A stretch of 21,062 bases of DNA from a virus: UHGV virus genome UHGV-1684449, one strand, 5' to 3'. Below, one piece after another: positions 996-20,970 of the stretch (positions are counted from its first letter, which is position 1; every line of letters begins with the position of its first letter). Under the pieces are notes generated by a model. That model did no database searches, had not been told where the DNA came from, and saw nothing but the letters and a program-made list of their open reading frames with translations. A program made the position numbers and the translations under genes.

Positions 996-1015
996 ATAAG
1001 TTAGTATCTACCTAT
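996..1015. promoter_or_regulatory. Copy of the recurring 8-4-8 palindromic motif (ATAAGTTA-GTAT-CTACCTAT)
   Basis: Matches the ATAGGTAA-N4-TTACCTAT pattern seen at four other intergenic sites. Lies directly upstream of the small hydrophobic ORF. Confidence 0.35.
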
Positions 1016-1016
1016 C

Positions 1017-1196
1017 ATGAAGATTTTTATTGAATACTTGTTACTCATCGTTTCAATAGCTTTTGTCATCGACTGCATTTTCACTGGTGTCATTCGTAAA
1101 GTCTTTTCCCCGGTGCACGACGTAGTCATAAACGCTTTGGCTATCGTGCTCGTATTTAATTCAGCATTTGATGTAATCAAAGAGGTGGCAGCATGA
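1017..1196 (+). CDS. Small hydrophobic protein (59 aa), probably membrane-embedded
   Basis: Hand-translated ORF absent from the track (below its size cut-off): MKIFIEYLLLIVSIAFVIDCIFTGVIRKVFSPVHDVVINALAIVLVFNSAFDVIKEVAA. It has two hydrophobic segments. Its TGA stop overlaps the ATG of the next gene (ATGA at 1193-1196). No clear Shine-Dalgarno sequence upstream. Confidence 0.35.
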   Translation: MKIFIEYLLLIVSIAFVIDCIFTGVIRKVFSPVHDVVINALAIVLVFNSAFDVIKEVAA

Positions 1197-1528
1197 AGGC
1201 CATCCCATTCGCGCTGTTGTTCCTTTCTTCGATCGTTGTGGCCGACACCACTGTTTATCAGTGTGAAATGTCTGTAGCCGACGTTAAGAATGGCGCTCTT
1301 ACCGACGTCATAAAAGCACCATATGGAGCGATGGTCGTAGACAGCGGCGACCAGTTCTATGTTGTGCGTGACGATCGAGTATTGTCATCCCCATATCTCA
1401 CAAACCGTAATGGCAAATTAACCGGCGTCGGAGAAGACCACTTCGTATACAACAAATACAAGGGCTTCTATGGCGTTCACGCTTCTCAGCAAAGCTACCT
1501 TTTCGATGACTGCAAGGAGGTTGGATAA
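1193..1528 (+). CDS. Secreted or periplasmic small protein with N-terminal signal peptide (111 aa)
   Basis: N-terminus MKAIPFALLFLSSIVVA-DTT looks like a Sec signal peptide with an AxA-like cleavage site. Two cysteines in the mature part. GAGGTGG ribosome-binding site upstream. Confidence 0.6.
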   Translation: MKAIPFALLFLSSIVVADTTVYQCEMSVADVKNGALTDVIKAPYGAMVVDSGDQFYVVRDDRVLSSPYLTNRNGKLTGVGEDHFVYNKYKGFYGVHASQQSYLFDDCKEVG

Positions 1529-1740
1529 TGGCATTAACACTGGCAGGTCTGGAAATCGAGAAAACAAGCGGATACTGGCGTGCTAAGGGTTTCAAGCAGC
1601 CTGGCATTCTTGAGCGTCTGGAACGTGAAGATGGGTATATCGTCCACCAGCGGCGTGAATGGCGTATGTACGATCCAGAAACAGGAAAACTGACTACAAA
1701 AGCCGGAACACTTTGGGGTCTGTTGAAGAAAATACACTAA
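1528..1740 (+). CDS. Hypothetical protein (70 aa)
   Basis: ATG overlaps the upstream stop (TAATG). Strong AAGGAGG ribosome-binding site at 1514-1520. Confidence 0.5.
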   Translation: MALTLAGLEIEKTSGYWRAKGFKQPGILERLEREDGYIVHQRREWRMYDPETGKLTTKAGTLWGLLKKIH

Positions 1741-1787
1741 ATGCAAACTGACTGCGGCTCGTTCCGCAGTCATATTTCATAGTCGTC

Positions 1788-2320
1788 ACCGCTGACAGCA
1801 TACACAATCAATTACCGCTGATAGCATATCGAGAGTTTATCTCACCGCTCACAGCATACTTTACTCGATTTTTTACCGCTGACAGCATACTTAAGACATT
1901 GCATGAATAATGTGTACCGGTATGGGTATAACCAGAACAAAATTACCGCTGGCAGCATACGAAGGTCTGACATATACCATTAATTACCGCTGATAGCATA
2001 TCCAAACAAAAATTCCTCAATAAAACACCGCTGACAGCATACGTTCTATCAGGGAGTAGCAGGCAATAAATGCCTTTCACTACAAGCAATCAGCGCAATA
2101 GCAATAGAATGTTAGTGAGCGCAAACCTATATGGAATGCACTCTTCGAGGTTAGTAACCACTGGGGAGGTATGACAGAGCATTGAGTGGTGATAGATGAT
2201 TTACCGCTCACAGCATACGTTCATCTCACTATACCGCTGGTAGCATATCTTTAACCGTTCACAGCATACTTTTCAGAAAAATAGCCGCTGATAGCATACA
2301 TTTCACCGCTGACAGCATAT
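1788..2320 (+). repeat. Iteron array, 12 copies of a 16-bp direct repeat (consensus ACCGCTGACAGCATAC), incA-like
   Basis: Copies at 1788-1803, 1814-1829, 1844-1859, 1875-1890, 1945-1960, 1986-2001, 2027-2042, 2203-2218, 2233-2248, 2254-2269, 2284-2299 and 2305-2320, all in the same orientation. Variants include ACCGCTGATAGCATAT and ACCGCTCACAGCATAC. Start-to-start spacings are mostly 21, 30-31 or 41 bp. The last copy abuts the stop codon of the initiator gene. Confidence 0.85.
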
Positions 2321-3414
2321 CAAAGCAGTTTGAGACTATTGGAAAGGATCTCAATCATCTTGATATTTTCAGGCGTCAAATTCTGCGAAAGTTCGGTTAT
2401 CTTGTTGATAATGTTCTGTTTGGCATCAATTTCCCCAGCTTTCTCATCTGGTTTTTTGGGTTCGATGTCTTCAGGTTTTGGCGGTGCGACTTTGAGTTTT
2501 GGATTGCGGCTGTGAATCTGGATATAGATCGACCGCCCACGCTTAATCTCGCTGTATTCGAGATAGCCCAAATCTTGGAGAGCTTTTAAGCCGTTACGTA
2601 TAGTCTGATTCTGCGAGCTGACATTCCTGCTACTCAAATTGAGTCGCGCACGCAATCGAGCAAGCGATACCGGCGCAGGCTTGGTTGGAAGACTTTCGAT
2701 GAAGGTGTACAGAGCCTGTGCTGTTTCTTTGCGTGGTAGCTTATTGATAACCTTTAACTGCAAAAGAACCTTATGGTCAAAGCGATATAGTTCGGCCAGC
2801 TTCGGTTCTGCATAGAACACCACCGTATCTTTCTGCTCGTTGTAGTCCACGCTATTGATGAGGTGCACCATCAGAAGCGAGATCTTGTTAGAGCCGTCGA
2901 CGTTCTTTTCTTCATACGTTCTCTGGAAAGACAGAGTTGTACGCATGATCTTCAAAAGACTGTTTGTAAGCCGGTCGCGGAGTGTTTTGCGGATCTGTGA
3001 CGATGGATAGCCACAAAACTTCGCAAATTTCGTGATGCTTAACTCGACACGACCGTTAGGTTCGCCGTATTCTGCCAGCGAACGCACAACGCCCACCCAC
3101 GTTTTGAAATCATGATCCATGTCGAGACGAGGACCGGTTATCTTGATATCGGAATAGCCTTCAGAACGGGCTACTTCGAGCTGGACAAGCTCCTTTGAAG
3201 CATCGATCTCATTTGGCTTGTTACGTTTACTGTATTTTGTTCCCTTAAGCGTGGGGACGAACAACCCCAGTCGCATCAACGCAATTGGTTGGACTGTATT
3301 GTTGCTATTAGGGACAAGTTCCCCTGTGTACAATTCAAGGGAACCTTCTTCAAAGTTGTCGATGTTATCTTCTACTTCTTTGTTATTTTTACCTTTTTTA
3401 TTTTTTGTGGACAT
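2320..3414 (-). CDS. repA: Plasmid-type replication initiator, RepA-like (P1 RepA / Rep_3-like), 364 aa
   Basis: Minus-strand ORF flanked on both sides by iterons. Segments NSNNTVQPIALMRLGLFVP, DIKITGPRLDMDHDFKTW, ALYTFIESLP and IHSRNPKLK match my recollection of P1 RepA-family initiators. Start chosen at the internal ATG (3412-3414, MSTKNKKG...) because the track's longer 404-aa ORF runs through the upstream iterons. Confidence 0.75.
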   Translation of the reverse strand: MSTKNKKGKNNKEVEDNIDNFEEGSLELYTGELVPNSNNTVQPIALMRLGLFVPTLKGTKYSKRNKPNEIDASKELVQLEVARSEGYSDIKITGPRLDMDHDFKTWVGVVRSLAEYGEPNGRVELSITKFAKFCGYPSSQIRKTLRDRLTNSLLKIMRTTLSFQRTYEEKNVDGSNKISLLMVHLINSVDYNEQKDTVVFYAEPKLAELYRFDHKVLLQLKVINKLPRKETAQALYTFIESLPTKPAPVSLARLRARLNLSSRNVSSQNQTIRNGLKALQDLGYLEYSEIKRGRSIYIQIHSRNPKLKVAPPKPEDIEPKKPDEKAGEIDAKQNIINKITELSQNLTPENIKMIEILSNSLKLL

Positions 3415-3434
3415 GTGGACACCTTTGTCATTCA

Positions 3435-3536
3435 ACCGCTGACAGCATACTTGATTTGCCGCTGACAGAATACCAAAAACAGTTGGCAGCATACGGTGAA
3501 CCGCTGACAGACTATCAATTACCGCTGACAGCATAC
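3435..3536 (+). repeat. Upstream iteron array, 5 copies of the same 16-bp repeat, origin/incC-like
   Basis: Copies at 3435-3450 (ACCGCTGACAGCATAC), 3458-3473 (GCCGCTGACAGAATAC), 3479-3494 (ACAGTTGGCAGCATAC), 3500-3515 (ACCGCTGACAGACTAT) and 3521-3536. Spacing is 23, 21, 21, 21 bp, about two helical turns. They sit directly upstream of the initiator start codon. Confidence 0.8.
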
Positions 3537-3576
3537 ATGAACATGACTTCAGACCAGTCGTGGCGCGGCTTACAGC

Positions 3577-3649
3577 GATCGGGGATCTTATTTGATCTAT
3601 ATAAGGATCTATCTATGGATCTCTTTATTAGGATCTATCCTGTGGATAT
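3577..3649. promoter_or_regulatory. Origin-like region: GATC cluster in AT-rich DNA plus a DnaA-box-like site
   Basis: Six GATC sites at 3577, 3584, 3594, 3606, 3618 and 3632 within about 60 bp, inside repeated GGATCTAT units. GATCTCTTTATTAG resembles the E. coli oriC 13-mer GATCTCTTATTAG. TGTGGATAT at 3641-3649 matches the DnaA box consensus TGTGGATAA at 8 of 9 positions. Confidence 0.6.
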
Positions 3650-3735
3650 GTGAATAATTAAAACAGGCATTTACTACCTTCGGCGCACCTGGTGGGTTAT
3701 CGTTGCCTCGGCTAACAATCACAGAAAAATGACAT

Positions 3736-4380
3736 ATGGATCTAAAACGCACGCGCTGGGTTCGTCGTCTTGAAGACGGCTCCTACACTATCGAATCAAA
3801 TTCCAACCTGAATAAGCAGAAGTTGCTTTGTGACATCTGCGGTATAGCGGCGAAGTGCCCGATCTACGAAACCAGAATTAAACTTGATAAGGCTGGTGTG
3901 AATTTTCATTTAAACAGTTGCATCAGGTACGTTCCATTACTCGCATTTCGTAAACCGATCATCGGATTGGATGCTCCCTACTTCAACACACTCCGTTCAG
4001 GTGTGACGTGGCGAGATCGTTTATCACCAGACAAGCTGATTTGCCTCGTATCCGCAGACACAGGGAAAATCATCCGTTTTGGGAAAGTAGACAAGGTTTA
4101 CTCAGGCCCAGTAGACGAAATGTTGCGGAAACACAGCCGGTTTAATCATCTCTGTATGGGTGGTGAGAAAATCGAGAAGGTAGAAGAAGTGATCCGCAAA
4201 TCCTACGGACACTTCCTGAACAAAGATAGCCTGCTCACCGCAATCTACATCAGACATGTAAAACGTGAGTTCGACCTCGAATACCACAGTGAAGAAGAGC
4301 TTAACCTTGTTGACCCACGTCCAAAAGCTGGCGTCATAAGCATAAACGCAGCGCGTAAAAAGCCCACTGACGCGCTGTAA
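3736..4380 (+). CDS. Hypothetical protein (214 aa)
   Basis: ORF transcribed away from the initiator gene. Contains a CDICG (CxxC) motif. No family recognised, and the ribosome-binding site is weak. Confidence 0.5.
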   Translation: MDLKRTRWVRRLEDGSYTIESNSNLNKQKLLCDICGIAAKCPIYETRIKLDKAGVNFHLNSCIRYVPLLAFRKPIIGLDAPYFNTLRSGVTWRDRLSPDKLICLVSADTGKIIRFGKVDKVYSGPVDEMLRKHSRFNHLCMGGEKIEKVEEVIRKSYGHFLNKDSLLTAIYIRHVKREFDLEYHSEEELNLVDPRPKAGVISINAARKKPTDAL

Positions 4381-4398
4381 CCCTCCAGATCGCATATT

Positions 4399-4419
4399 GG
4401 CGTAGATAGAATCTACGCC
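4399..4419. other. Perfect 9-bp inverted repeat hairpin (GGCGTAGAT-AGA-ATCTACGCC)
   Basis: Read directly from the sequence. No downstream T-tract, so it may be a protein-binding site or RNA structure rather than an intrinsic terminator. Confidence 0.4.
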
Positions 4420-4502
4420 CCCTCAAAATAGCTCTCATAGCGTTCTACAGTGATCCTGTCTTATTTTTAGTCATACAGACAAGCAAAGTTGCGCCACAAC
4501 AA

Positions 4503-4522
4503 ATAGGTATATACTTACTTAT
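4503..4522. promoter_or_regulatory. Copy of the recurring 8-4-8 palindromic motif (ATAGGTAT-ATAC-TTACTTAT)
   Basis: Intergenic, about 110 bp upstream of the sbcD-like gene. Confidence 0.4.
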
Positions 4523-4634
4523 AAATTTTGTATATTAAGGCGCTCGTTTCATTCCTAACATACCGTTATGCATAGTTGTTTACCTTCTCATTGCTCTTAG
4601 AATTTGTATCAAAATAATCACAAAGGAAAAACAC

Positions 4635-5720
4635 ATGACTTTGCCATACGGCGTCATTTCTGACTGCCACTACCACAAATGGGATGCGTTCTCCACGACG
4701 AACGCTGAGGGGCTTAACTCCAGACTTGAAATACAGTTGGAAGCAACGAAAGAAGCAGCCATCGCCATGAAGAAGGCCGGTTGTACGTACATGTTGGTTG
4801 CCGGTGATACATTTCACGTCCGAGGAACTGTGTCCCCTTCTGTTTTGCATTACGTAACTGAAACGTACAAGTGGATTATCAACGAGCTTGATCTGACAGT
4901 AGTAATGCTGGCCGGTAATCACGATCTTGAAACCAACGATTCAGTATATAGCGCCAACGCAGCAGCATCGCTGAGTTCTATCGGCGTGGTAATCGTATGT
5001 GGCAAACGCCCACACTCAATAAAAATTGGTGATGTGACTGTCCACCTGATTAGCTGGCGTAACAATCATGCAGAGCTTATCTGCGATCTGAAAGCATTAC
5101 GTAAGAGCGTAGAAGGTGATAATCATGACGTTGTTATCCATACATCCATTAACAAAGCCATTCCAACAATGCCTGACGTCGGTATCGATGCGCAGGAGTT
5201 AAAGGATATCGGCTTTCGTCTCGTGCTTAGTGGGCATTACCACAACCACAAAGAGGTCATTCCTGGAGTTATCAGTGTCGGTGCGCTGACCCATCAAAAT
5301 TGGGGAGATGTTGGATCTCTGGCTGGTTACATGATCGTAAACCCGGACGGCAGTTTCAGTCACTACGAAACCAGTGCGCCTAAATTCATTAACCTGGAAG
5401 ATTATGTTGCCGATGACCAAATTCGCGGCAACTACGTGCGTTTCCGCGCCGTAATTGAGAACGATGAAGAAGGCATTAAGTACCAGAACATCCTCAAAAC
5501 AATGGGTGCAAAAGGTGTCGTGTGCAACTTCATCCGTAAGTCATCAATGATGGAAGGGACAGCAAGCACAACGGAAACCAGCAAAATCGATAGCCTGGGA
5601 GAGTCGGTATCTGCTTATTGCAAGATTGTCCACGATACTGACGGCGGATTTGATCTAAGCAAGTTGGATATTTTGTGTCAGGAAATCCTCACCGAAGCGG
5701 AGAGTTCGGAGGCTGTGTGA
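4635..5720 (+). CDS. sbcD: SbcD/Mre11-like metallophosphoesterase nuclease subunit
   Basis: Calcineurin-like phosphoesterase motifs: SDCHYH near the N-terminus, GDTFH, GNHD and GHYH. It sits immediately upstream of an SbcC/Rad50-like ATPase gene. Preceded by the leader AAAGGAAAAACACATG. Confidence 0.8.
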   Translation: MTLPYGVISDCHYHKWDAFSTTNAEGLNSRLEIQLEATKEAAIAMKKAGCTYMLVAGDTFHVRGTVSPSVLHYVTETYKWIINELDLTVVMLAGNHDLETNDSVYSANAAASLSSIGVVIVCGKRPHSIKIGDVTVHLISWRNNHAELICDLKALRKSVEGDNHDVVIHTSINKAIPTMPDVGIDAQELKDIGFRLVLSGHYHNHKEVIPGVISVGALTHQNWGDVGSLAGYMIVNPDGSFSHYETSAPKFINLEDYVADDQIRGNYVRFRAVIENDEEGIKYQNILKTMGAKGVVCNFIRKSSMMEGTASTTETSKIDSLGESVSAYCKIVHDTDGGFDLSKLDILCQEILTEAESSEAV

Positions 5721-5761
5721 GGCAAAGTCGTTATGGGAGCTTTCGAGACTTTGCCATCACG

Positions 5762-8608: not shown

Positions 8609-9178
8609 ATGAGTAAAAAAATCAGCGTAGTTGGTGTTGATCCCTCAATGAGCAACTTTGGGCTTGCTGTGGGCACTTTAGACCTTGAGACGGACGAACT
8701 TGAGATTCACGGCCTTACTCTTGTTGAGACTAAAGCGGGGAGTAACAAAAAGACCGTTCGTGTGAACAGTGACGATCTGCGCCGAGCCAGTGAAATATGG
8801 CGTGTTGCGAAGCCAATCATTGATAAGGCAAATATGGTTTTTTGTGAGCTACCGGTTGGGAGCCAAAACTCTCGTTCGCAGACGTCTTACGGTATTTGTA
8901 TCGGTGTACTTGCGTGTGTGGATAAGCCATTGATCCAGGTTACTCCAAACGAAATCAAGCATTTTGTCGGCAATAAACTTACTACATCGAAAGAAGAGAT
9001 TATCCAGTGGGCTACGAAAAAACACCCTAAAGCACCGTGGCTGCGTCGTAAGCAATCTGGACAGGATGTTCTCGTGAACAAAAACGAACATTTGGCTGAT
9101 GCGGTGGCTGCCATCCATACCGGTATGCAAACAGATCAGTTTCGCCAGGTGCGCGATGTTCTCAAGTCTCTCATTTGA
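8609..9178 (+). CDS. RuvC-like Holliday junction resolvase (RNase H fold), putative
   Basis: N-terminal VVGVDPSMSNFGLAVG resembles the RuvC GIDPGSRVTGYGV motif; C-terminal ADAVAAIHTG resembles RuvC ADALAIAITH. AAGGAG ribosome-binding site upstream. Confidence 0.5.
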   Translation: MSKKISVVGVDPSMSNFGLAVGTLDLETDELEIHGLTLVETKAGSNKKTVRVNSDDLRRASEIWRVAKPIIDKANMVFCELPVGSQNSRSQTSYGICIGVLACVDKPLIQVTPNEIKHFVGNKLTTSKEEIIQWATKKHPKAPWLRRKQSGQDVLVNKNEHLADAVAAIHTGMQTDQFRQVRDVLKSLI

Positions 9179-9186
9179 TCTCGTTG

Positions 9187-9206
9187 ATAGGTAAGTGCTT
9201 ATCTAT
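9187..9206. promoter_or_regulatory. Copy of the recurring 8-4-8 palindromic motif (ATAGGTAA-GTGC-TTATCTAT)
   Basis: Intergenic, between the RuvC-like gene and nrdA. Confidence 0.4.
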
Positions 9207-9212
9207 TAACAT

Positions 9213-9245
9213 GGGCCACTATATTTAGTGGCCCTCTTTATTTGG
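9213..9245 (+). terminator. Rho-independent terminator-like hairpin
   Basis: 9-bp stem GGGCCACTA / TAGTGGCCC (9213-9221 / 9226-9234) followed by T-rich TCTTTATTTGG. Confidence 0.5.
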
Positions 9246-9251
9246 TGATAC

Positions 9252-11567
9252 ATGATAAGCATCGTAAAACGTAACGGCCAAACAGAGCCGTTATCCGAAG
9301 AAAAATACAACCGCGTCGTAATGTATGGCGTAGAAGGCATTCGTGGTGTAAGCGCATCCGCTGTAGCAATGGGAGCTGCGGCCAGCATTTTTGATGGGAT
9401 TACCACCAGCCAGTTGCATGAGGCTTTGGTTAAATCTGCCGCTGATTTGATCTCACCAGAAGCACCAAATTACTCACAGGTGGCTGCCCGCCTGAACATT
9501 TTTAAAATCCGCAAAGATGCCTTCGGTCGTTACGACTATCCGAACTTCTACCAACACATTGTCAAGAACGTTAACAAGGGCGTTTATGACAAGGATTTGC
9601 TGACACATTATTCGTTTGAAGAGATCGAAGAACTCGGCAATTACATTAAGCCGAAACGTGACGATCTTTTTGGCTATGCAGCTACGGTGCAGTTGCAAAG
9701 CAAATACCTCGTTCAAAACCGTGTTACTGGTGAGATTCATGAGGGGCCGCAACATATCTATATGCTGGTAGGCATGTGTCTGTTCCAGAATTGGGAAGAC
9801 GACTGCGCTGGCAAAACACGTATGGAGATGGTCAAAGGTTTCTATGACGTTACAAGTACGTTCAAACTGTCTCTGCCCACACCAATCATGGCCGGCGTCC
9901 GTACTCCAACCCGTCAGTTCTCCAGTTGTGTGCTGATTGAGTCTGGCGATAGTCTGAAAGGGATTAGTGCAGCTTCAGCCGCAATTATCGACTACGTTTC
10001 ACGTCGTGCTGGAATTGGTATTGGTTTTGGCCGTATCCGTGCGCTGGGCAGCGAGATCCGCAATGGTGAAGCCACCCATACCGGAGTTATTCCATTCCTG
10101 AAGCATTTCCAGACGGCTGTTAAATCTTGTTCGCAAGGTGGTGTTCGTGGTGGCGCAGCAACAGCGTTTTACCCGATCTGGCATCTTGAAGTTGAAAGTC
10201 TGCTGGTGGTGAAAAATAACCGTGGTATTGATGAAAACCGCGTTCGCCATCTTGATTACGGCGTCATGAGTAACCGTCTAATGTACCGTCGACTCGTCAG
10301 AAGCGAGAACATCACTCTGTTCAGCCCGCATGATGTGCCTGATATGTACGAAGCCTTCTTCACAGACCAGGATCTGTTTGAAAAGCTGTACCATAAATAC
10401 GAAGCCGATGATTCAATTCGCAAGAAGTCAGTGTCTGCCATTGAGCTGTTCTCATCTCTGATGCAGGAACGAGCGTCCACGGGCCGAATTTATATTGCGA
10501 ACGTCGATCATATTAATGAGCATGGCGCTTTCATTCCTGCTCTTGCACCTGTCCGCCAGTCAAACCTGTGCATGGAGATCACTCTACCCACTCGTCCACT
10601 GGCATTTACCGACGACCCGAACGGTGAGATCGCGCTATGCACTTTATCCGCTTTTAACCTCGGAGCCATCCGTTCACTGGAGTCTCTTAAAGAGGTGGCG
10701 TTCTATGCCGTTGCTGCACTGGATTCGTTACTGGATTATCAAGACTATCCGATGGAGGCAGCCGCAGTGCCTGCCAAAGCTCGTCGTAGCTTGGGAATTG
10801 GTGTAACCAACTTTGCTTATTACCTGGCAAAGAATGGCGTTCGTTATTCTGATACCGCTGGCAATAAACTGGTGCATGAAACGTTCGAAGCTATCCAGTA
10901 TTACCTTCTTGATGCCAGCTGCCGACTTGCTGAAGCAAAAGGTGAGTGTGACTGGTTTGAGCAGACCAAGTACGCAATTGGTCAGTTGCCGATCGACCAT
11001 TACCGTTCTTCATTAGACGAAAGTGGCGAAACCAACTTTGAGTTAAAGATGCCGTGGGAAGAACTGCGTGAACGTATTGCAAAATACGGCCTTCGCAACT
11101 CCACACTGACGGCACAAATGCCATGCGAGACTTCCAGCCAGATCACTAATTCCACCAACGGCATCGAACCGCCTCGTGGCCCGGTGTCGGTGAAATCTTC
11201 TAAGGACGGCATCGTTAAGATGGTCGTGCCTGAGTTTGAAAAACTGAAGGAACAGTATGAATACCTGTGGGATATGCCGGACAACCGCGGCTATCTGACA
11301 AAGGTGGCGATCATCCAGAAGTTCTTTGACCAGGCTATTTCAGCCAATACCAACTATGACCCTTCTCGCTTTGAAGGCGATAAAGTCCCAATGATGACGC
11401 TACTGTCAGATTTGCTTCTCGCCTACAAGATGGGAGTTAAAACGCTTTACTACCACAACACCAGAGATGGGGCAGGAAAGCGTGATGACGACGAACCGCA
11501 GAATCCACTGACGCAAGCTGTAGCCGTCGAGCCAGAAGATGAGTGCGACGGAGCCTGCAAAATCTGA
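9252..11567 (+). CDS. nrdA: Ribonucleoside-diphosphate reductase alpha subunit (class Ia)
   Basis: 771 aa with high similarity along its length to E. coli NrdA as I recall it, including LPTPIMAGVRTPTRQFSSCVLIE, SCSQGGVRGGAATAFYP, VRQSNLCMEI, ISANTNYDPSRF and the C-terminal CDGACKI redox tail. Confidence 0.95.
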   Translation: MISIVKRNGQTEPLSEEKYNRVVMYGVEGIRGVSASAVAMGAAASIFDGITTSQLHEALVKSAADLISPEAPNYSQVAARLNIFKIRKDAFGRYDYPNFYQHIVKNVNKGVYDKDLLTHYSFEEIEELGNYIKPKRDDLFGYAATVQLQSKYLVQNRVTGEIHEGPQHIYMLVGMCLFQNWEDDCAGKTRMEMVKGFYDVTSTFKLSLPTPIMAGVRTPTRQFSSCVLIESGDSLKGISAASAAIIDYVSRRAGIGIGFGRIRALGSEIRNGEATHTGVIPFLKHFQTAVKSCSQGGVRGGAATAFYPIWHLEVESLLVVKNNRGIDENRVRHLDYGVMSNRLMYRRLVRSENITLFSPHDVPDMYEAFFTDQDLFEKLYHKYEADDSIRKKSVSAIELFSSLMQERASTGRIYIANVDHINEHGAFIPALAPVRQSNLCMEITLPTRPLAFTDDPNGEIALCTLSAFNLGAIRSLESLKEVAFYAVAALDSLLDYQDYPMEAAAVPAKARRSLGIGVTNFAYYLAKNGVRYSDTAGNKLVHETFEAIQYYLLDASCRLAEAKGECDWFEQTKYAIGQLPIDHYRSSLDESGETNFELKMPWEELRERIAKYGLRNSTLTAQMPCETSSQITNSTNGIEPPRGPVSVKSSKDGIVKMVVPEFEKLKEQYEYLWDMPDNRGYLTKVAIIQKFFDQAISANTNYDPSRFEGDKVPMMTLLSDLLLAYKMGVKTLYYHNTRDGAGKRDDDEPQNPLTQAVAVEPEDECDGACKI

Positions 11568-13761: not shown

Positions 13762-13830
13762 TTGTAGGTAGTTATCTATCTGTGTATATTGCGTTGGCGC
13801 GTTAAATTTCTGAAACAACTATTCGTTTTT

Positions 13831-13856: not shown

Positions 13857-13932
13857 TCTATCTGGCCTTGTTCCCTCAATAAATGTAAACTCACTTAATT
13901 AATAAGTGGTTACTTATCTTTGTGAGGTTTTT

Positions 13933-15036: not shown

Positions 15037-15037
15037 T

Positions 15038-15451
15038 ATGGCAAGAGGTATGTATGTCTTATGCGAAATTGAAGGTGTGCTGGCAAATACCAGCCATCGT
15101 AAATCTGTATCTGACGCGGATGCAGGCCAGCTCATTGCCGGTGATGAACTCATTTTCCCCACCAGCCGTATGTTGCGTGGTTTTGCTCGCTCAGGGGCTG
15201 AAGTGGTGCTTATCAGTAGCCGCTCTGAAACTCTTGAAGCGCCCACTAAACGATGGCTGAAAGATTTTGGCGTTGATTACGACTGGCTTCATCTCGTACC
15301 GAATGGCACCAGTTATGAGAAGCATATTAAGCGCACATTAGCGGAGCATAAAGGCGATCTGCTTATCGCTGCGCTGGTGCACGATCCTCGACTCCGTGCC
15401 GCTTTAGCTGACTCTCATCATAGACCGGTCATCTATGAGGTGAGCAAATGA
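15038..15451 (+). CDS. Hypothetical protein, possibly a HAD-like phosphatase fold (137 aa)
   Basis: ORF between the thymidylate synthase and dihydrofolate reductase genes. YVLCEIEGVL resembles HAD motif I (hhhhDxDGxL) but with Glu at both Asp positions; VVLISSRS and GDLLIAALVHD could be motifs II and IV. Start trimmed to the first ATG after the thyA stop. Confidence 0.4.
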   Translation: MARGMYVLCEIEGVLANTSHRKSVSDADAGQLIAGDELIFPTSRMLRGFARSGAEVVLISSRSETLEAPTKRWLKDFGVDYDWLHLVPNGTSYEKHIKRTLAEHKGDLLIAALVHDPRLRAALADSHHRPVIYEVSK

Positions 15452-16568: not shown

Positions 16569-16629
16569 AAATTGTTCGCCTCTTCGACATTGCGACAATA
16601 AAACTCTCAAAATGGGTTAAGGATAAAAA

Positions 16630-17049
16630 ATGTTTAGTGAAATGTTGCTTGAAGATGAACTGGATCGGAAAACAACAGAGGCTTTGATTCGTGTAGCGGA
16701 CGAACATTCCCGGTCGCTTATGAGCGATCGAGAGGCTCGCCTGGCTATTCGTGCCATATTCGAAACTGCGCAGGGGCTTGTTGGCGCACAAGTAGGTGAA
16801 GCCATTAACATCGCCATGTCTCAGTTCAGTGAAGACAGTAAAAAGCCTCTGTTTCCTATGCATTTGATGCTGGCTGGTGGCACGGTGCTTTATATCTCTG
16901 TTTGTCTGGATAGCAACCAAATCAATATTCTCAACACTGCGTCAGGTAAGTGGAAAGATCCGATTGTCTGTGAAACCAGTGAAGAAACTTTGAAAAAAGC
17001 GGCTCAATTTGTACGTAGCGCACTACTTAAGGGCGCTAAGAAGTTGTAA
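16630..17049 (+). CDS. Hypothetical protein (139 aa)
   Basis: ORF with an AAGGA ribosome-binding site. No family recognised. Confidence 0.5.
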   Translation: MFSEMLLEDELDRKTTEALIRVADEHSRSLMSDREARLAIRAIFETAQGLVGAQVGEAINIAMSQFSEDSKKPLFPMHLMLAGGTVLYISVCLDSNQINILNTASGKWKDPIVCETSEETLKKAAQFVRSALLKGAKKL

Positions 17050-17058
17050 GGAGTTCTG

Positions 17059-17616
17059 ATGACAACGATTGTTGCAGGCATCGATATCGAGTCTACGGGA
17101 CTGGATTTCCTTGCTGGTCATAAAATTATTGAAATCGCAATTACCCGCTATGAACTGGAGACACAGAGACATATTGATAGTCTGGAGATGCGTTTTAACC
17201 CTCGCAGAAACATAGATCCGAAAGCTCAAGCCGTTCATGGCATTTCATTAGAACAGCTCGCAGCTGAACCTTTGTTGTCAAATCATGCCAGCGAAATTGG
17301 CGCTTATATGGGGGCATGTAGTGCGTGGATTGCTCATAACGGCGAAGCGTTTGATATACCATTTATTCGACACGAGTTTTCAGGGTATGGAGTAAGACTG
17401 CCAGACGTTCCCGTTATAGATACTATGTTATCGGGATTGTGGGCCACAGAAGACGGTAAACGTCCTCGCCTTGAAGAATTGGCCTTCTCTCTTGGCTTTA
17501 TATACGATCATGCCAAAGCACATAGTGCCTTATATGACACAAACTTAATGATGCAATGCTTCTTTAAGGCACGTAATAAATACGGATTTTTTAAATTACC
17601 CTCTGAAATTGTGTAA
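17059..17616 (+). CDS. DnaQ-like 3'-5' exonuclease (DEDDh family)
   Basis: Exo I GIDIESTG, Exo II HNGEAFDIPF and Exo III HSALYDT motifs. AAGGAG ribosome-binding site. Confidence 0.75.
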   Translation: MTTIVAGIDIESTGLDFLAGHKIIEIAITRYELETQRHIDSLEMRFNPRRNIDPKAQAVHGISLEQLAAEPLLSNHASEIGAYMGACSAWIAHNGEAFDIPFIRHEFSGYGVRLPDVPVIDTMLSGLWATEDGKRPRLEELAFSLGFIYDHAKAHSALYDTNLMMQCFFKARNKYGFFKLPSEIV

Positions 17617-17620
17617 AACA

Positions 17621-17660
17621 AAAGCCTGCTTTAAAGAGAGTTTGAAGCAGGCTTTCTTTT
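17621..17660 (+). terminator. Rho-independent terminator
   Basis: Stem AAAGCCTGCTT / AAGCAGGCTTT (17621-17631 / 17645-17655) followed by CTTTT. Confidence 0.65.
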
Positions 17661-17776
17661 AAAGAACAGTCGCCTTTCAATCATTTCCTGCCTGTATTTA
17701 ATACTTTTCCGCCTGATAGGTTTAGTCAAAATGTAGCCATCGAAACGCAAATGCAACTAAACAGAAGGAGACTTAC

Positions 17777-18586
17777 ATGAGTTCGGTTGAAAATGTAATG
17801 ACAAATGATGATCTGGATGAGCTGACAGCCATGTTGCAATCACTTGATGAACCAGTAAAAAAAGCTGCACAGGTTGAAAATACTGATGATATTGACGATC
17901 TGCTTCTCGGCCTCGATGCTGGCGTAGCCATGAGTTCTGATGATGTTGCCGAAGAACTGTTCAATGAAGAAAAAGCAGGTGATTTCAGCTCCGCTTTAAA
18001 TGAGTTGGAGTTAGCTCATGAGCCTATAAACGTAATTAAGGCTGAAAGTGTTGAATCTGCCGAAAACGAGCCAGAACAATTGGGGTTTATTGAGGTTGAA
18101 GAGTGTGTTGAGGTTAATGATGAATTAAAAGTTCAACAGTCAAATGATAGCAATACAAATAAAAAAGCTCGTACTGCAAGAGGTCCTCGTTTTACTTTAA
18201 GTGATAAAGATGATTTGTTTTTCAATAAAGCAGGCTTAGAAAAAGATATTTTCTTAGACGCTTACGAAAACGCGCCTGTCAAAGCAAAGGATAAGATATT
18301 AAACCTTCTTAATTGGTTTAGCGGAGGTCCAGATATTAGTGTTTACACGGTAATTTCCATGAGACACCTTCTCACAGAAAAGAAGGCTACAAGTAATAGT
18401 ATTAAGATTGCTTTAATGAGCAATCCAGAAAAACCGTATCCGCTTAACACTGCGTCAACTCAGGCTGGGCAAATGATGGCTGTATTTCCAGCTACAGGAA
18501 TTGCTGTTAGAGACGGTGGAAATCTAACATTGAACGAAGAATCACCGATCGTTAAGAAGTTTGTCGCGGAGTACACTATTGGATGA
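17777..18586 (+). CDS. Hypothetical protein with a strongly acidic N-terminal half (269 aa)
   Basis: GAAGGAG ribosome-binding site. The first ~120 residues are rich in Asp and Glu (DDLDEL, DDIDDLLLGLD, ESVESAENEPEQ, EVEECVEVNDE). No family recognised. Confidence 0.55.
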   Translation: MSSVENVMTNDDLDELTAMLQSLDEPVKKAAQVENTDDIDDLLLGLDAGVAMSSDDVAEELFNEEKAGDFSSALNELELAHEPINVIKAESVESAENEPEQLGFIEVEECVEVNDELKVQQSNDSNTNKKARTARGPRFTLSDKDDLFFNKAGLEKDIFLDAYENAPVKAKDKILNLLNWFSGGPDISVYTVISMRHLLTEKKATSNSIKIALMSNPEKPYPLNTASTQAGQMMAVFPATGIAVRDGGNLTLNEESPIVKKFVAEYTIG

Positions 18587-18626
18587 CGTTCCCCTACTGA
18601 AAATAAAGCCCATAGAGAGCTTTATA

Positions 18627-18708
18627 GTGCTGGGTAAGCTAACCCATACCCAGCACCACAAAAACGCGCCAGAGAGCTTCTTGTTCGCATTTCTGGCGCG
18701 TTTTATTT
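18627..18708 (+). terminator. Tandem hairpins; the second is a rho-independent terminator
   Basis: Hairpin 1 has a perfect 10-bp stem GTGCTGGGTA / TACCCAGCAC (18627-18636 / 18647-18656). Hairpin 2 has stem AAAACGCGCCAGA / TCTGGCGCGTTTT (18661-18673 / 18692-18704) followed by ATTTG. Confidence 0.6.
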
Positions 18709-18737
18709 GATTGCCATACATAAAATCAAATGCAAAA

Positions 18738-18757
18738 ATAGGTAATCACTTACCTAT
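18738..18757. promoter_or_regulatory. Best copy of the recurring palindromic motif (ATAGGTAA-TCAC-TTACCTAT)
   Basis: Perfect 8-bp inverted arms with a 4-bp spacer, 12 nt upstream of the methyltransferase start codon. Confidence 0.45.
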
Positions 18758-18768
18758 CGAGAAAGAAG

Positions 18769-19362
18769 ATGATTGCAGCCGAAAAAATCAAACAGCGAAA
18801 GCGCGACAACTCTCTTCGTGACCTCTGGAGAACACCTGATTGGCTGTTTTCTGCCATTCAACGTTATCTTGGAGTGACATTTGATGTTGACGTTGCCTGC
18901 AACAAGGACAATGCAAAGCTGCCTATTTTCATAGGCGTTGAGCGCGATGCTTTGAAATCTGAATGGGGGCAGCCAGGTACAATTGCCTTCCTCAATCCAC
19001 CCTACTCCAAAATCTCCCCCTGGATTGATGCGGCTATACGTGAGCAGGCTCGCGGAGTTACAACAGTGATGCTAATTCCTCAATCCCTCGATACAAAGTG
19101 GTATGAGCGTGCAACAGAGTATGCGAATGAGACGATTATTCTGTCTGGTGGCCGCGTTGCGTTTGTCGAGCCTGACGTCAATTTGGGTCAGGTAGAAGTA
19201 AACATCAACCCCGGTGGCAGTATGCTCGTTGTTTTTCGAGGGTTTTGTCAGGACGCTGGGCACTCTATAAGCAAGATCCCTTTGGACGTCATGAAAAGTC
19301 TGGGAGGGTATGATCCTGCGAATGTGATCAGGAAAAAAAGACCATCAAAGAAGGCTGCTTAG
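18769..19362 (+). CDS. DNA N6-adenine methyltransferase (phage Dam-type family)
   Basis: Catalytic motif FLNPPYS (NPPY) and N-terminal LWRTPDWLF, typical of small phage N6-adenine methyltransferases. Target sequence not determinable from the sequence. Confidence 0.7.
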   Translation: MIAAEKIKQRKRDNSLRDLWRTPDWLFSAIQRYLGVTFDVDVACNKDNAKLPIFIGVERDALKSEWGQPGTIAFLNPPYSKISPWIDAAIREQARGVTTVMLIPQSLDTKWYERATEYANETIILSGGRVAFVEPDVNLGQVEVNINPGGSMLVVFRGFCQDAGHSISKIPLDVMKSLGGYDPANVIRKKRPSKKAA

Positions 19363-19548
19363 TTTGCTCTGGCGTCTGTAATTAGCCTGCTTCTGTATAT
19401 ATAAATAACTACATATTAATTATTAATATACGGAAGCAGGCTGTTTTGTATCAGAGACTCCCAGACCTGAACATCACTACAGAATCCACTAGACCCCCTT
19501 CCCAGACGCTTTAAAATCGATTTTATGAACCACTTTAAGGAAACCAAC

Positions 19549-19779
19549 ATGTCATACTCGACTAATGTCGTTGCGCTCGTAGAGAGCGATTTTCTGGCCC
19601 AGGCTCGTGAAATGATGAAAGATCGTGAGCAGGCTTTCAACTTGTACGAGTGGGCAATTAAGTGCTTGCATCTTGGCGAGCATCGCGAACTTGTTGAACA
19701 GCTTTTAGGTGAGTTGATCAATGAGGTGTTTGCCTTGAATGTTCAACTACATGGTCGAGAAAATAATCAATCACAATGA
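19549..19779 (+). CDS. Hypothetical protein (76 aa)
   Basis: The track ORF starts at 19525, but the in-frame ATG at 19549 has a proper AAGG ribosome-binding site and the leader AAGGAAACCAACATG. No family recognised. Confidence 0.45.
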   Translation: MSYSTNVVALVESDFLAQAREMMKDREQAFNLYEWAIKCLHLGEHRELVEQLLGELINEVFALNVQLHGRENNQSQ

Positions 19780-20360
19780 TAGATAAGTACAAACTATTCA
19801 TAAAGTGAATTGTAAGTGCTAAGATCTGATAGTTTCCAGTCGTAGACTGGAGGCTCGACCTGATGGGTGGGGGTAAGCGTCACTGGCGTCAGGTTTAAAA
19901 AAGCTCACTACCAGCGTAGAACCGGTGCCGTATAGGTGTCGGGGAAGGGGGAACCAAAGTGAGCAGAGACAAGGGTCACTTTATGATTGTCGAGTCTGGG
20001 GTGTTTCGAGAGGTTGAATCCAGTACTCCCCTTCATAAAGTGTGGGAAGATCTCGGTTCTGGGGTGCTGTCATCCATAACTTCCCAAGTCTAAGCTGGCA
20101 GTAGACTTAGACCATAGCTTTTCAGGTTATGAAACGACCAGGTTGGTGAGGAATTTTATACTCACCTCCCTGGGAGAGTATTACCTGAAAAGACAACCTC
20201 TCACTTCGTTCGAGGTGAACTTCACTCACTTCGTTCGTTCAGTTCAGGTTTATAAAAACCTGTTCTGGGAAGTAATTTGTTTATTTTAATAATTATTAAC
20301 ACGCACGCGTGTGCGCACGCGCGAGGAAAAATCGGCGCGGCGCTTGATTCAGGAGTTTAT

Positions 20361-20951
20361 ATGACGACGAAGACACCAGCCCGATCGCAAGCAAAAACTC
20401 GCAAAAAAGACAAAAACAAAAATTCTCCCCGCACCAATCCCACAACGCCTGTCGTAGAGTTCAATCCCCAGCTTAAAACCGTGAAAATCTTTAGTGATGG
20501 CTCTTGCCTTAAAAATCCGGGTGGCCCGGGCGGTTACGGTATCGTTCTCCAGTATCGTGGTGAGGAACGCGAGTTCTCAGATGGTTTTCATAGCACCACC
20601 AATAACCGCATGGAGATGATGGGGGCACTTATCGGGCTGGAGCGTTTGAAATATCCATGCAACGTTATTTTGCACTCTGATAGCCAGTATCTGAAAAACG
20701 GCATGACACAGTGGATGAAATGGTGGAAACGCAATGGATGGATGACTTATGACAAAAAACCGGTAAAGAATGTTGATCTGTGGAAGCGTCTGGATGAGGC
20801 CGCAAGTCGACATAATGTTCGCTGGAAGTGGGTTAAAGGTCACGCCGGGCATCGTGAAAATGAAATATGTGATCGACTCGCGAAGATCGCAGCTTTTTCA
20901 GCAGCAGATATGCCTCACAAGAAAGATATTGGTTTTGTTTATAACAAATAG
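20361..20951 (+). CDS. rnhA: Ribonuclease HI
   Basis: [52 protein letters not shown] and [20 protein letters not shown] closely match E. coli RNase HI as recalled. Start placed at ATG 20361 with an AGGAG ribosome-binding site; the track's 20277 start adds an implausible leader. Confidence 0.9.
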
Positions 20952-20970
20952 TAAGTAAGTGTTTACCTAT
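20951..20970. promoter_or_regulatory. Copy of the recurring 8-4-8 palindromic motif (GTAAGTAA-GTGT-TTACCTAT)
   Basis: Begins at the last base of the rnhA stop codon; the right arm is a perfect match. Confidence 0.35.

Follow-up and report, generated by a model that had tools for sequence, protein, structure and literature searches.

A 20-bp palindrome recurs between the genes of a 21,062-nt stretch of viral DNA (the window, meaning the whole stretch analyzed), which raises the question of what acts on it. The window belongs to an SSU5-like phage-plasmid and is 98% identical to Escherichia phage Cyrano (pLF82). We consider it somewhat more probable than the alternatives taken together that the palindrome is an operator of a phage-encoded dimeric helix-turn-helix regulator, most probably the XRE lysogeny repressor, an orthologue of CYRAN_45 encoded outside the window. 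We infer that a protein binds at all, that the binder is the XRE protein and that its effect is repression. No description of the palindrome was found in the literature searched.

The window was searched for ATAGGTAA-N4-TTACCTAT, and five matches were found with three or fewer mismatches, compared with a mean of 0.06 and a maximum of 1 in dinucleotide-preserving shuffles. A sequence-only reading of this DNA had reported five copies outside coding sequence. All five exist and lie outside long ORFs; the copy at 20951 shares only the last base of the stop codon with ORF 20277–20951. The copies are listed below together with the weaker ones.

996–1015: motif copy ATAAGTTAGTATCTACCTAT, 3 mismatches, 22.9 bits, between ORF 702–977 and ORF 1017–1196
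4503–4522: motif copy ATAGGTATATACTTACTTAT, 2 mismatches, 26.0 bits, between an ASCH-domain gene (3736–4380) and sbcD (4635–5720)
9187–9206: motif copy ATAGGTAAGTGCTTATCTAT, 1 mismatch, 26.7 bits, between a ruvC-like gene (8609–9178) and nrdA (9252–11567)
18738–18757: perfect-arm copy ATAGGTAATCACTTACCTAT, 0 mismatches, 27.3 bits, 11 nt before the adenine-methyltransferase start at 18769
20951–20970: motif copy GTAAGTAAGTGTTTACCTAT, 2 mismatches, 25.0 bits, sharing its first base with the end of the RNase H stop codon
13902–13921: degenerate copy ATAAGTGGTTACTTATCTTT, 15.6 bits, directly upstream of thyX
13764–13783: weak, shortened copy GTAGGTAGTTATCTATCTGT, 13 bits, directly after the mazG-like stop codon, of uncertain status
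19779–19798: decayed copy ATAGATAAGTACAAACTATT, about 11 bits, after ORF 19525–19779 and upstream of the small gene CYRAN_81
669–688: decayed copy ATAAGTAAACACTAACCACA, about 9 bits, upstream of ORF 702–977

Orthologous junctions in Salmonella SSU5 (76% nucleotide identity) and Klebsiella pJN2-26 retain sites between diverged flanks. The sequence at 996–1015 is the same at the orthologous position in SSU5 (L005:13628). Orthologues of the 4503–4522 copy are found in SSU5 (L005:18634) and Klebsiella (L009:343), and the 9187–9206 copy is kept in both (L005:23329 and L009:5035) with a diverged left flank. The perfect-arm copy corresponds to L005:33205 in SSU5 and L009:14621 in Klebsiella, the latter being the exact consensus, and the copy at 20951–20970 to L005:35458 and L009:16842, which score 28.7 bits each. 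The weaker copies have counterparts as well. For 13902–13921 these are stronger than the window's own copy (Cyrano 72599, 21.8 bits; SSU5 28065, 22.4 bits; Klebsiella 9789, 26.0 bits). The counterpart of 19779–19798 is ATCGGTAAGTACTTACCATT at SSU5 34263 (16–18 bits), that of 669–688 is ATAAATAAGCACTTACCAAT at L005:13300 in SSU5 (20 bits), and the 13764 copy is identical in Cyrano (L006:28240) with weak counterparts at SSU5 27911 and Klebsiella 9622. Since the weaker copies near 669, 13764 and 13898, also listed in the sequence-only reading, each stand at the position of a relative's copy, we regard them as decayed family members rather than chance matches; the last is better read 4 bases to the right, at 13902–13921.

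Intergenic enrichment, which the earlier reading had proposed to check, was examined over the whole Cyrano genome. Cyrano carries about 20 strong copies, and 17 matches with three or fewer mismatches were found against about 0.3 expected. Coding sequence makes up 87% of this genome, yet 19 of the 20 strong sites lie outside it (binomial P = 2.7e-16). The sites were said to lie mostly just upstream of gene starts; the tendency holds, but start codons follow at anything from 2 to more than 100 nt, and some sites stand after a stop codon and before a strong terminator, such as Cyrano 5443 after the capsid gene. In distant SSU5-like viral contigs of 58–62% GC, whose proteins are 27–41% identical to those of Cyrano, the motif occurs about once per 3 kb, compared with 0 in shuffles, and the core TAAGTAAGYRCTTACTTA is almost invariant. 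The spread of the roughly 20 copies over both early and late genes, and conservation far beyond the phage studied, are additions to the earlier description.

That description was of an 8-4-8 inverted repeat. The arms are as described, but the N4 spacer is not free: the consensus is a 20-bp perfect palindrome, ATAGGTAAGTACTTACCTAT, with the half-site ATARGTAAGT. Among 49 unique sites, mirrored positions have nearly equal base counts (for example, A21/G24 at position 4 and A22/G25 at its mirror), and T6 and A15 are invariant. The two arms vary independently. The pair 4–17 is Watson-Crick in 25 of 49 sites, where independence predicts about 22, and mispairs of the G.U type (46) and the A.C type (39) are similar in number. 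Arms with the same mirrored frequencies and independent variation point to a site for a symmetric protein dimer and not to an RNA hairpin. A symmetric dimer that binds duplex DNA typically leaves such a pattern, which favors the dimeric-regulator site suggested earlier.

A link to promoter elements had also been suggested, and sigma-70-like elements do overlap the sites, with a direction that matches the downstream gene. Three such promoters were predicted in the window.

991–1018, + strand: predicted sigma-70 promoter TTTATA-16-TATCAT with the motif as spacer, a consensus match only
9184–9212, + strand: predicted nrdA promoter TTGATA-17-TAACAT, enclosing the motif
18711–18739, + strand: TTGCCA-17-AAAAAT with TG upstream, a predicted promoter of the extended -10 type

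In the first of these, the final 3 bases of the motif begin the -10 and CAT completes it. The nrdA register is repeated in SSU5 and reads TTGATA-17-TACTAT in Klebsiella. In the third, the last base of the -10 is motif base 2, which would place the transcription start within the motif; the TGnAAAAAT is kept in SSU5 and Klebsiella. A -10-like hexamer, TATATT, is also present at 4531–4536, 8 nt downstream of the 4503–4522 copy. Overall, the -35/-10 elements, which are consensus matches in AT-rich flanks, overlap the sites in several registers: TTGAAA/TTGCAA-17-TA(Y)nAT spaced by the motif, TTGATA-17-TAACAT before nrdA, an extended -10 of the TGTAAGAAT type 8 nt downstream, and TGnAAAAAT whose last base is motif base 2. 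The spacer register TTGAAA/TTGCAA-17-TA(Y)nAT was found in 52 of 237 unique sites, about 3-fold over controls with the -35 window shifted 3–5 bases further upstream but almost equal (49 vs 42) to a control shifted 3 bases the opposite way. Its direction agrees with the downstream gene in 25 cases and disagrees in 3. The TA(Y)nAT hexamer at the motif edge is equally frequent on both strands (61 vs 69 of 141) and may simply belong to a longer palindrome.

As operators, the roughly 20 intergenic copies per genome would stand before or between early and late genes of the lytic cycle. Most abut or overlap promoter elements of the sigma-70 type, with the motif forming the 17-bp spacer and the start of the -10, or covering either the -35 region or the start site. 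A bound dimer would exclude RNA polymerase, leaving the phage silent in the plasmid state, and copies with no promoter may act as roadblocks to elongating polymerase. Several sites, terL/portal among them, have no predicted promoter, which counts against repression, as do the sites placed before a strong terminator.

The earlier statement that the window encodes no obvious cognate DNA-binding protein agrees with our analysis; the best candidate, CYRAN_45, is encoded about 16 kb upstream of the window's genome position. CYRAN_45 is of the XRE type by Pfam (HTH_19), and its AlphaFold model has a five-helix XRE fold that matched C.BclI, HigA-DNA, SinR and P22 c2 in Foldseek. Its segment GYKNxNNLSLIKSGKIPLP is nearly invariant among homologues of 55–100% identity, and GYKNxN is retained in a 36%-identical homologue from a 60%-GC lineage. 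In 46 distinct regions upstream of the XRE gene, a TTTACA-16-TAATAT promoter is conserved, and (C)GGTAAGYACTTACC comes after it, at about +2 to +15. This copy scores low (9.7–15.5 bits) because only the central 14 bp fit. A weaker core copy of this kind, placed where transcription of the repressor gene itself begins, would let the protein regulate its own synthesis negatively. In a distant lineage, a 22-bit site lies 77 nt upstream of the XRE gene. Because any gene has about a 1 in 5 chance of an upstream site, a site beside the XRE gene says little about which protein binds.

Expression in the lysogen was taken from LF82 RNA-seq (supplementary table of PMC9928086), with a background of 9.8. 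CYRAN_45 reads 96, whereas the ParB-like CYRAN_119 (5), CYRAN_120 (9.5), the winged-helix CYRAN_123 (7.8) and CYRAN_37 (6.4) are at or near background. CYRAN_45 is the one helix-turn-helix candidate, of those examined, that is clearly expressed in the lysogen. Of the 18 genes that directly follow sites, 17 are at or near background, and a strong upstream site was found for 0 of the 14 lysogen-expressed genes listed as morons (PMC9928086). CYRAN_81, with only a decayed site upstream, reads 117. On the other hand, CYRAN_34, directly after a site, reads 44, which counts against repression. The gene-level RNA-seq change over site junctions was not significantly larger than over other junctions (Mann-Whitney P = 0.14 to 0.9).

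Silence of the downstream genes in the lysogen would also be explained by a lytic-only activator. The motif would then be recognized by a positive regulator of lytic transcription, or would belong to a promoter specific to the phage, with the sites switching lytic promoters on like the P1 late-promoter dyad or the T4 MotA box; we regard this as unlikely, though worth serious attention. Candidates are the winged-helix CYRAN_123 (just before terS), the 70-aa CYRAN_46 (divergent from the XRE gene) or an unrecognised factor. Persistence over very distant lineages and GC contents is what core transcription machinery would show: immunity specificities usually diverge fast, and a motif frozen over 45–62% GC is no less expected of a core transcription factor than of a repressor. 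Intact sites in SSU5, which has no XRE gene, point the same way, as does a 58%-GC relative with two sites between the winged-helix gene and terS. In macrophage-grown cells, expression jumps exactly at some sites, with a log2 step of +3.65 over the 996–1015 junction (CYRAN_59 to 60; LF82 RNA-seq). In the spacer registers the dyad centre lies at about -19.5 to -22.5, close to the dyad at -22 of P1 late promoters. However, repression is the normal outcome when a dimer occupies the start site or the space between -35 and -10, and many of the associated promoters combine a good -35 and -10 with the optimal 17-bp spacing, for which no activator should be required. The same motif precedes replication and nucleotide-metabolism genes as well as structural and lysis genes, so one activator would erase the temporal classes, and the Cyrano annotation has no RNA polymerase or sigma gene.

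Other binders, or no binder on DNA, were also considered. Scattered palindromic sites on a plasmid are characteristic of KorB, with its operators on RK2, and of SopB on phage-plasmid N15, and on that model the copies could be dispersed centromere-like or silencing sites for the ParB-family CYRAN_119 and 120. In Cyrano (105107), as in the four distant lineages L063, L044, L028 and L111, the ParB-like gene does have a site directly upstream. We hold this to be improbable, as Pfam detects only the ParB N-terminal domain and no helix-turn-helix in these two proteins, they are at or near lysogen background (5 and 9.5 vs 9.8) in a state that calls for a partition or silencing protein, ParA of the element is encoded at another place beside a small partner gene, and the co-orientation with promoters is left unexplained. 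Very improbable, in our view, is binding by a conserved host transcription factor, by which nitrate or anaerobic signalling could gate the phage. Each arm matches the NarL/NarP heptamer consensus, TACYYMT; positions 14–20 read TACYTAT/C, a lead, and the R/Y degeneracy at positions 4–5 and 16–17 mirrors that of the heptamer. But the heptamers point apart with 6 bp between them instead of the 7-2-7 inverted layout of high-affinity sites, the conserved AAGT/ACTT falls outside the heptamer, the motif persists in 58–62% GC phages that probably have other hosts, and it co-occurs with a phage-family-specific XRE protein whose recognition region is invariant. Finally, the motif might act as an intercistronic RNA hairpin with a role in processing, stability, termination or the control of translation. 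It is intergenic, mostly in co-directional arrays and sometimes a few bases from a ribosome-binding site; three of the five window copies fold better than shuffles (-4.9 to -7.1 kcal/mol); G.U-type mispairs slightly exceed A.C-type (71 vs 45) when sites are oriented by gene direction; and an FljA-like protein (PF03614), whose Salmonella homologue binds mRNA, is conserved in the family. The independent variation of the arms nevertheless largely refutes this reading, to which we give almost no credence. The other two copies do not fold (0 and -1 kcal/mol), disruptive mispairs at stem positions 1–8 outnumber G.U pairs (72 vs 34), and no within-lineage covariation was seen, the sequence itself and not just the pairing being conserved. 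There is no consistent U-tract after the motif and no Rfam family match in the window.

By analogy with known systems, a dispersed network of lysogeny-repressor operators, comparable to P1 C1 operators and mycobacteriophage stoperators, is the best reading, with a little more than an even chance of being right. In the P1 plasmid prophage, C1 controls many unlinked operators at promoters of lytic functions (replication, methylase, regulators). The sites here are likewise dispersed at predicted promoters, and the element has further P1-like traits in its Cra- and Tci-like genes and its RepA-iteron replicon. The operators of P1 are asymmetric 17-mers to which the large C1 binds, and P1 late genes are separately controlled by Lpa, whereas here the candidate is a small XRE-type protein, the site is symmetric and sites reach into the structural gene block. 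Operators of lambda, 434 and P22 c2 share with the motif a dyad whose best-conserved half-site bases are about one helical turn apart, overlap with -35/-10, a copy at the repressor's own promoter and, in the candidate, the XRE fold. Unlike the lambdoid 2 x 3 operators clustered at one switch, a single core site is accompanied here by about 20 dispersed over 100 kb, and specificity is conserved over a very broad family instead of being split into immunity groups. KorA/KorB operators stand at about 7–12 promoters around an IncP plasmid. KorA is described as a global repressor with a symmetric operator (PMC2665229). The resemblance lies in repeated short palindromic operators, which in IncP coordinate repression of backbone functions; the protein family and sequence differ, and the element's ParB-family proteins have no detected helix-turn-helix and are not expressed in the plasmid state.

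In mycobacteriophage L5 and Cluster A, the repressor motif is dispersed genome-wide, mostly in short intergenic regions (PMC5712189; PMC9283540). With its operator and about 24 stoperators, L5 resembles the present case in having one motif in about 20–30 copies genome-wide, mostly in short intergenic regions and with late genes included. L5 sites are 13-bp, asymmetric, bound by a monomer and in one orientation to transcription, whereas a 20-bp perfect dyad here implies a dimer. Many copies here fall on core promoter elements and not downstream of them, and roadblock activity is putative; the Gram-negative phage-plasmid host range and the repressor fold class also differ. Mycobacteriophage D29, a lytic deletion derivative, lost its repressor and kept its stoperators (PMC5712189). 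In the same way SSU5, a lytic isolate, lacks the integrase-XRE module and retains its sites.

The sequence-only reading had listed five copies of ATAGGTAA-N4-TTACCTAT in the window. With up to 3 mismatches allowed, all five were recovered, at 996, 4503, 9187, 18738 and 20951, compared with a mean of 0.06 copies and a maximum of 1 in shuffles of the window. Each of them falls between ORFs, as had been stated. The four central bases are not a free spacer, since GTAC or GTGC is conserved there, and the full element is therefore a 20-bp perfect palindrome, ATAGGTAAGTACTTACCTAT, with the half-site ATARGTAAGT. Weaker copies had been proposed at 669 and 13898, and both match strong copies in relatives. 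The second one, before thyX, belongs at 13902 by comparison with the relatives, its placement at 13898 being due to the internal TAAG-TAAG-TA periodicity. An extra weak copy at 19779 also has a strong counterpart in relatives.

The window is 98% identical to ∼58.5–79.8 kb of Escherichia phage Cyrano (pLF82, OV696614) and 76% identical to Salmonella phage SSU5 and Klebsiella SSU5-like phage-plasmids. In PLSDB, ∼205 plasmid records each span at least 80% of it. It contains small genes of unknown function, a RepA replicon, sbcCD, nrdAB, mazG, thyX, dhfr, an adenine methylase and RNase H; repA is on the minus strand and all other genes are on the plus strand.

When the same pattern was run over the whole of Cyrano in three pieces, 9, 8 and 0 copies were obtained (0.14, 0.13 and 0.01 expected). 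This amounts to 17 scattered copies at up to 3 mismatches versus ∼0.3 expected, above a threshold of at least 10, and a degenerate pattern added a few extra copies; ∼20 sites are strong. The left 44 kb of Cyrano was analysed by pattern search and alignment only. Nineteen of the 20 strong sites lie in non-coding DNA, with 87% of the genome coding (P = 2.7e-16). The one coding copy, which is conserved, lies within the 3′ end of the portal gene. Sites precede or separate late genes (terL/portal, after the capsid gene, tail M/L, J/fibre, holin) as well as early ones (the helicase-primase block, SSB, nrdA, thyX, methylase and others).

Base counts were taken from 49 unique sites in three genomes. 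Mirrored positions have near-identical counts, and T6/A15 are invariant. The dyad is accompanied by independent variation of the half-sites, as in Cro/CI-type operators: the variable pair 4–17 is complementary in 25 sites versus ∼22 under independence. This signature, as read from the sequence, is that of a symmetric protein dimer on duplex DNA and not of an RNA or single-strand hairpin, in line with the dimeric regulator first suggested. An RNA role for the motif is a minor alternative. G.U-type and A.C-type mispairs are equally common in the 49 sites (46 and 39), and in a larger gene-oriented set disruptive stem mispairs (72) exceed G.U pairs (34). The sole covariation in that set, at pair 4–17, is a lineage-wide R to A shift in both arms; no within-lineage covariation of the arms was found. 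Rfam gave no match in the window, and two of the five copies there form no RNA fold. An RNA hairpin was rejected on the mispair counts, the lack of covariation and the two non-folding copies. An intrinsic terminator was also rejected because there is no consistent U-tract and the sequence 3′ of the motif varies. Some sites have true terminators next to them, on one side or the other.

Orthologues of every copy in the window are present at the corresponding gene junctions of SSU5 and Klebsiella pJN2-26, mostly between flanks that have diverged. When IMG/VR was scanned for the exact pattern, at least 120 loci were found, many of them close relatives. Other loci among the matches listed are 58–62% GC and have no nucleotide similarity to Cyrano, and their proteins are 27–41% identical to the Cyrano ParB-like, TerS, CobS, PolIII-alpha, UvsY and XRE proteins. 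In these contigs the AT-rich core TAAGTAAGYRCTTACTTA is almost invariant and occurs about once per 3 kb versus 0 in shuffles, again between genes; one copy lies at the tail M/L junction, the same place as in Cyrano. For a phage immunity system it is unusual that one operator sequence is so deeply conserved over hosts differing widely in GC, and this calls for an explanation. In several distant viral contigs, two copies 46–79 bp apart were also seen and may indicate looping or cooperative binding at some of the loci.

Paired copies in distant viral contigs
L040, 11624–11698: pair
L056, 1620–1718: pair between a small winged-helix gene and terS
L100, 3084–3165: pair
L123, 8781–8846: pair at the tail M/L junction

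Sigma-70-like matches, called as consensus matches in AT-rich DNA, are scarce across the window (19 versus 33 expected; 32.6, sd 7.1, in shuffles), yet the sites show them repeatedly, in a few registers.

Promoter-like registers at the sites
Register (i), window 996, Cyrano 3527, 52659 and 57446, and many GC-rich sites: TTGAAA or TTGCAA, motif bases 1–17 as spacer, TA(Y)nAT
Register (ii), window 9184–9212, at nrdA: TTGATA-17-TAACAT, kept in three genera
Register (iii), window 4503 type: extended −10 such as TGTAAGAAT or TGTCATAAT, ∼8 nt 3′ of the motif
Register (iv), window 18738: TGnAAAAAT ending at motif base 2, kept in three genera

Because the −10 of register (iv) ends at motif base 2, its predicted start site lies within the motif. 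Register (i) was present at 52 of 237 unique sites, ∼3-fold over controls in which the −35 window was shifted 3–5 bases upstream; with a shift of 3 bases in the opposite direction, into the first motif bases, the control was almost equal (42 versus 49), so the enrichment is only moderate. Its direction agreed with that of the downstream ORF in 25 cases and disagreed in 3. On its own, the TA(Y)nAT hexamer shows no strand bias (61 sense, 69 antisense) and may therefore belong to a longer 26-bp palindrome. A single −10 register was rejected on these counts, since direction appears only in combination with the −35 hexamer. Whatever the register, the footprint of polymerase (−40 to +25) and that of a bound dimer would overlap. 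No promoter candidate was found at some sites, such as terL/portal and tail M/L, and some have a stop codon on one side and a terminator on the other (Cyrano 5443 and 22448). A fixed-distance promoter for a phage RNA polymerase was discarded, since sites lie anywhere from 2 to >100 nt from the start codon and the Cyrano annotation contains no RNA polymerase or sigma gene.

The portal-gene copy (Cyrano 3527–3546; SSU5 L008, 2986–3005) is identical in both phages and lies within a near-consensus TTGAAA-17-TATGAT. The scaffold and capsid genes may be driven from this promoter-like copy; expression climbs from portal to capsid in macrophage-grown cells.

It had been stated that the window encodes no obvious cognate DNA-binding protein, and no product with a recognisable domain of this kind is known there; the only product scanned, a 70-aa Cra-like protein (1528–1740), had no Pfam match. 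The candidate is CYRAN_45, a 128-aa protein encoded next to the integrase at Cyrano 42188–42574 and of XRE type by Pfam and structure. Its AlphaFold model has a mean pLDDT of 73, with 83–90 over the helix-turn-helix core. The nearest folds are C.BclI, HigA-DNA, SinR and P22 c2, all with weak E-values, and a PDB sequence search gave no match. Homologues were found only on ∼100–116 kb contigs, from Escherichia, Salmonella, Cronobacter, Citrobacter, Enterobacter, Klebsiella and Raoultella, and all 55 protein matches and all 80 viral loci in the search were SSU5-like. The segment GYKNxNNLSLIKSGKIPLP is near-invariant down to 55% identity, and GYKNxN is kept in a 36%-identical homologue on a 60%-GC contig.

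In 46 distinct regions upstream of the XRE gene, we found a conserved TTTACA-16-TAATAT promoter followed by the core palindrome (C)GGTAAGYACTTACC at ∼+2 to +15, which is a putative autoregulation-type arrangement. In the GC-rich lineage, a 22-bit site lies 77 nt 5′ of the XRE gene. The ∼250 bp between CYRAN_45 and CYRAN_46 hold one core site (score 9.7–15.5 bits) and no second site of at least 4 bits. SSU5, a lytic isolate, lacks the integrase-XRE module and has intact sites. CYRAN_46 (Cyrano 42826–43038), which encodes 70 aa and is transcribed away from the XRE gene, gave no match in Pfam and occupies the position of a Cro-like lytic regulator. It is ∼90-fold up in macrophage-grown LF82, an E. 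coli lysogen (log2 4.3 to 10.8).

Expression values were taken from the published LF82 RNA-seq (PMC9928086, supplementary table), in which the background is 9.8. In the lysogen, CYRAN_45 is at 96. Values at or near background were seen for the ParB-like genes (5 and 9.5); the winged-helix gene that precedes terS is at 7.8, CYRAN_37 at 6.4 and the FljA-like gene at 18. Of 18 genes just 3′ of sites, 17 are at or near background, the exception being CYRAN_34, and none of the 14 lysogen-expressed genes in the moron list of PMC9928086 has a strong site upstream. CYRAN_81, which is lysogen-expressed, follows the decayed site at window 19779. Macrophage-grown cells show log2 rises exactly at Cyrano sites 57446 (+3.6), 59399 (window 996; +3.65), 9018 (+2.5) and 34730 (+2.4). 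In the RNA-seq, levels also drop 2- to 5-fold across sites without a predicted terminator between the genes, for example from ASCH to sbcD, where sbcD is barely above the count floor. Only single junctions are suggestive: the overall statistic for gene-level steps at site junctions versus other junctions was not significant. Position, conservation and expression together make the XRE protein the probable partner of the motif.

On balance, we lean towards a dispersed operator network of a dimeric phage repressor, probably the XRE protein, that silences lytic promoters and possibly blocks read-through. In the plasmid-prophage state, repressor dimers on the sites would shut the lytic promoters, and the same bound sites could stop read-through transcription. 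The intergenic location of 19 of 20 sites and the 25:3 co-orientation of the predicted promoters at or near lytic genes are as expected for dispersed operators. The evidence that the lysogeny repressor binds them is circumstantial: the XRE gene is lysogen-expressed, and a core site lies at its conserved promoter. For an elongation roadblock, the sites without promoters and the drops in level across some sites are suggestive.

The main rival, in which the motif serves a positive regulator of the lytic programme or sets its promoter specificity, is favoured by the deep conservation of the motif and its retention in SSU5 without the XRE module. We consider it less likely, as early and late targets are mixed, near-consensus promoters are present at sites, and the position of the dyad speaks against it. 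The P1-type late promoter, which has a −10 but no −35, a dyad centred near −22 and the Lpa activator, offers a comparison; here the dyad centre is at −19.5 and −22.5 in two registers, but −35 hexamers are present and early genes are also preceded by sites. ParB/KorB-type sites (parS or OB) are a minor alternative, since the Cyrano ParB-like proteins show a ParB_N domain only, with no helix-turn-helix detected, and their genes are at or near background in the lysogen. So is binding by a host NarL-like protein. A NarL/NarP site consists of TACYYMT heptamers in a 7-2-7 inverted repeat with a 2-bp spacer, whereas the heptamer-like arms of the motif are everted and 6 bp apart. Replication iterons were rejected because the motif is dispersed and inverted and does not form direct repeats clustered at an origin.

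The proposed repressor-operator network resembles P1 C1 operators and L5 stoperators in function, with many intergenic copies genome-wide. Mycobacteriophage D29 has lost its repressor and kept its stoperators (PMC5712189), and SSU5 likewise has sites and no XRE module. However, L5 stoperators are asymmetric and have one orientation to transcription, whereas the motif is a perfect dyad with direction only in its flanks. In form, the symmetric site and the XRE-fold candidate are like Cro/CI operators, but lambdoid switches have clustered operators beside the repressor gene and here there is one core site. Given neither stoperator asymmetry nor a lambdoid cluster, we class the sites as putative dispersed repressor operators, outside both named families. 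No description of the motif or its core strings was found in the searchable literature.

A broader and more doubtful proposal is that one small XRE repressor with 20–40 symmetric sites per genome forms a family-wide silencing and insulation system, acting at promoters and as roadblocks. A single DNA specificity would then be common to SSU5-like lineages from enterobacterial to ∼60% GC, frozen by the dozens of sites to be kept matched. If so, immunity would extend between family members of different genera, and any relative resident in the cell would block lytic members that lack the repressor, such as SSU5.

[quoted passage not shown] The motif gives a concrete regulon map with ∼20 named sites, a named candidate repressor and a predicted autoregulated promoter. 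It also predicts genes that escape control, such as the lysogen-expressed small gene after the decayed 19779 site. If the repressor model is true, the XRE protein supplied in trans should block SSU5. The compact operator/candidate-repressor pair is also offered for engineering.

Salmonella FljA acts on fliC mRNA. Its Pfam family, 'Repressor of phase-1 flagellin', is matched by CYRAN_114 (Cyrano 100780–101301; E = 1e-80). The phage family has retained this protein: viral contigs L025 and L106 encode homologues, and an SSU5 homologue is cited in the Klebsiella pJN2-26 record (pJN226_0046).

Other repeats and elements
1787–2323 and 3434–3539: iterons, ∼20-bp direct repeats with consensus ACCGCTGACAGCATAC, at least 14 copies, flanking repA (2320–3534, minus strand) on both sides
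3596–3639: GATC-rich triple repeat
9213–9234: GC-clamped palindrome, GGGCCACTATATTTAGTGGCCC then TCTTTATTT, between the motif and the nrdA start, scored as a terminator
19386–19448, also Cyrano ∼31160–31215 and 108330–108379: long hairpins, CCTGCTTCTGTATATA, AT-rich loop, TATATACGGAAGCAGG, then a T-run
SSU5 L005 ∼33860–33920 and Klebsiella L009 ∼15270–15330: the same hairpin family in relatives

The repA repeats have the layout of a P1-like origin with copy-control iterons; they and the triple repeat are unrelated to the palindrome. The 9213–9234 palindrome is kept in SSU5 and Klebsiella. Its core CCACTATATTTAGTGG resembles an NrdR box, and its position at the predicted nrdA transcription start suggests host NrdR control of phage nrdAB. 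The long hairpins resemble strong terminators and are found again where several gene blocks end. Spurious weak motif matches arise in their AT-rich loops. Bases 1–118 are 100% identical to thousands of unrelated plasmids and a few phages, similarity to Cyrano beginning at base 119. They are probably the end of a widespread mobile element, beside or in place of the 3′ end of a stomatin-like gene. Terminator-like hairpins are commoner in the window than in its shuffles (24 versus 16.8).
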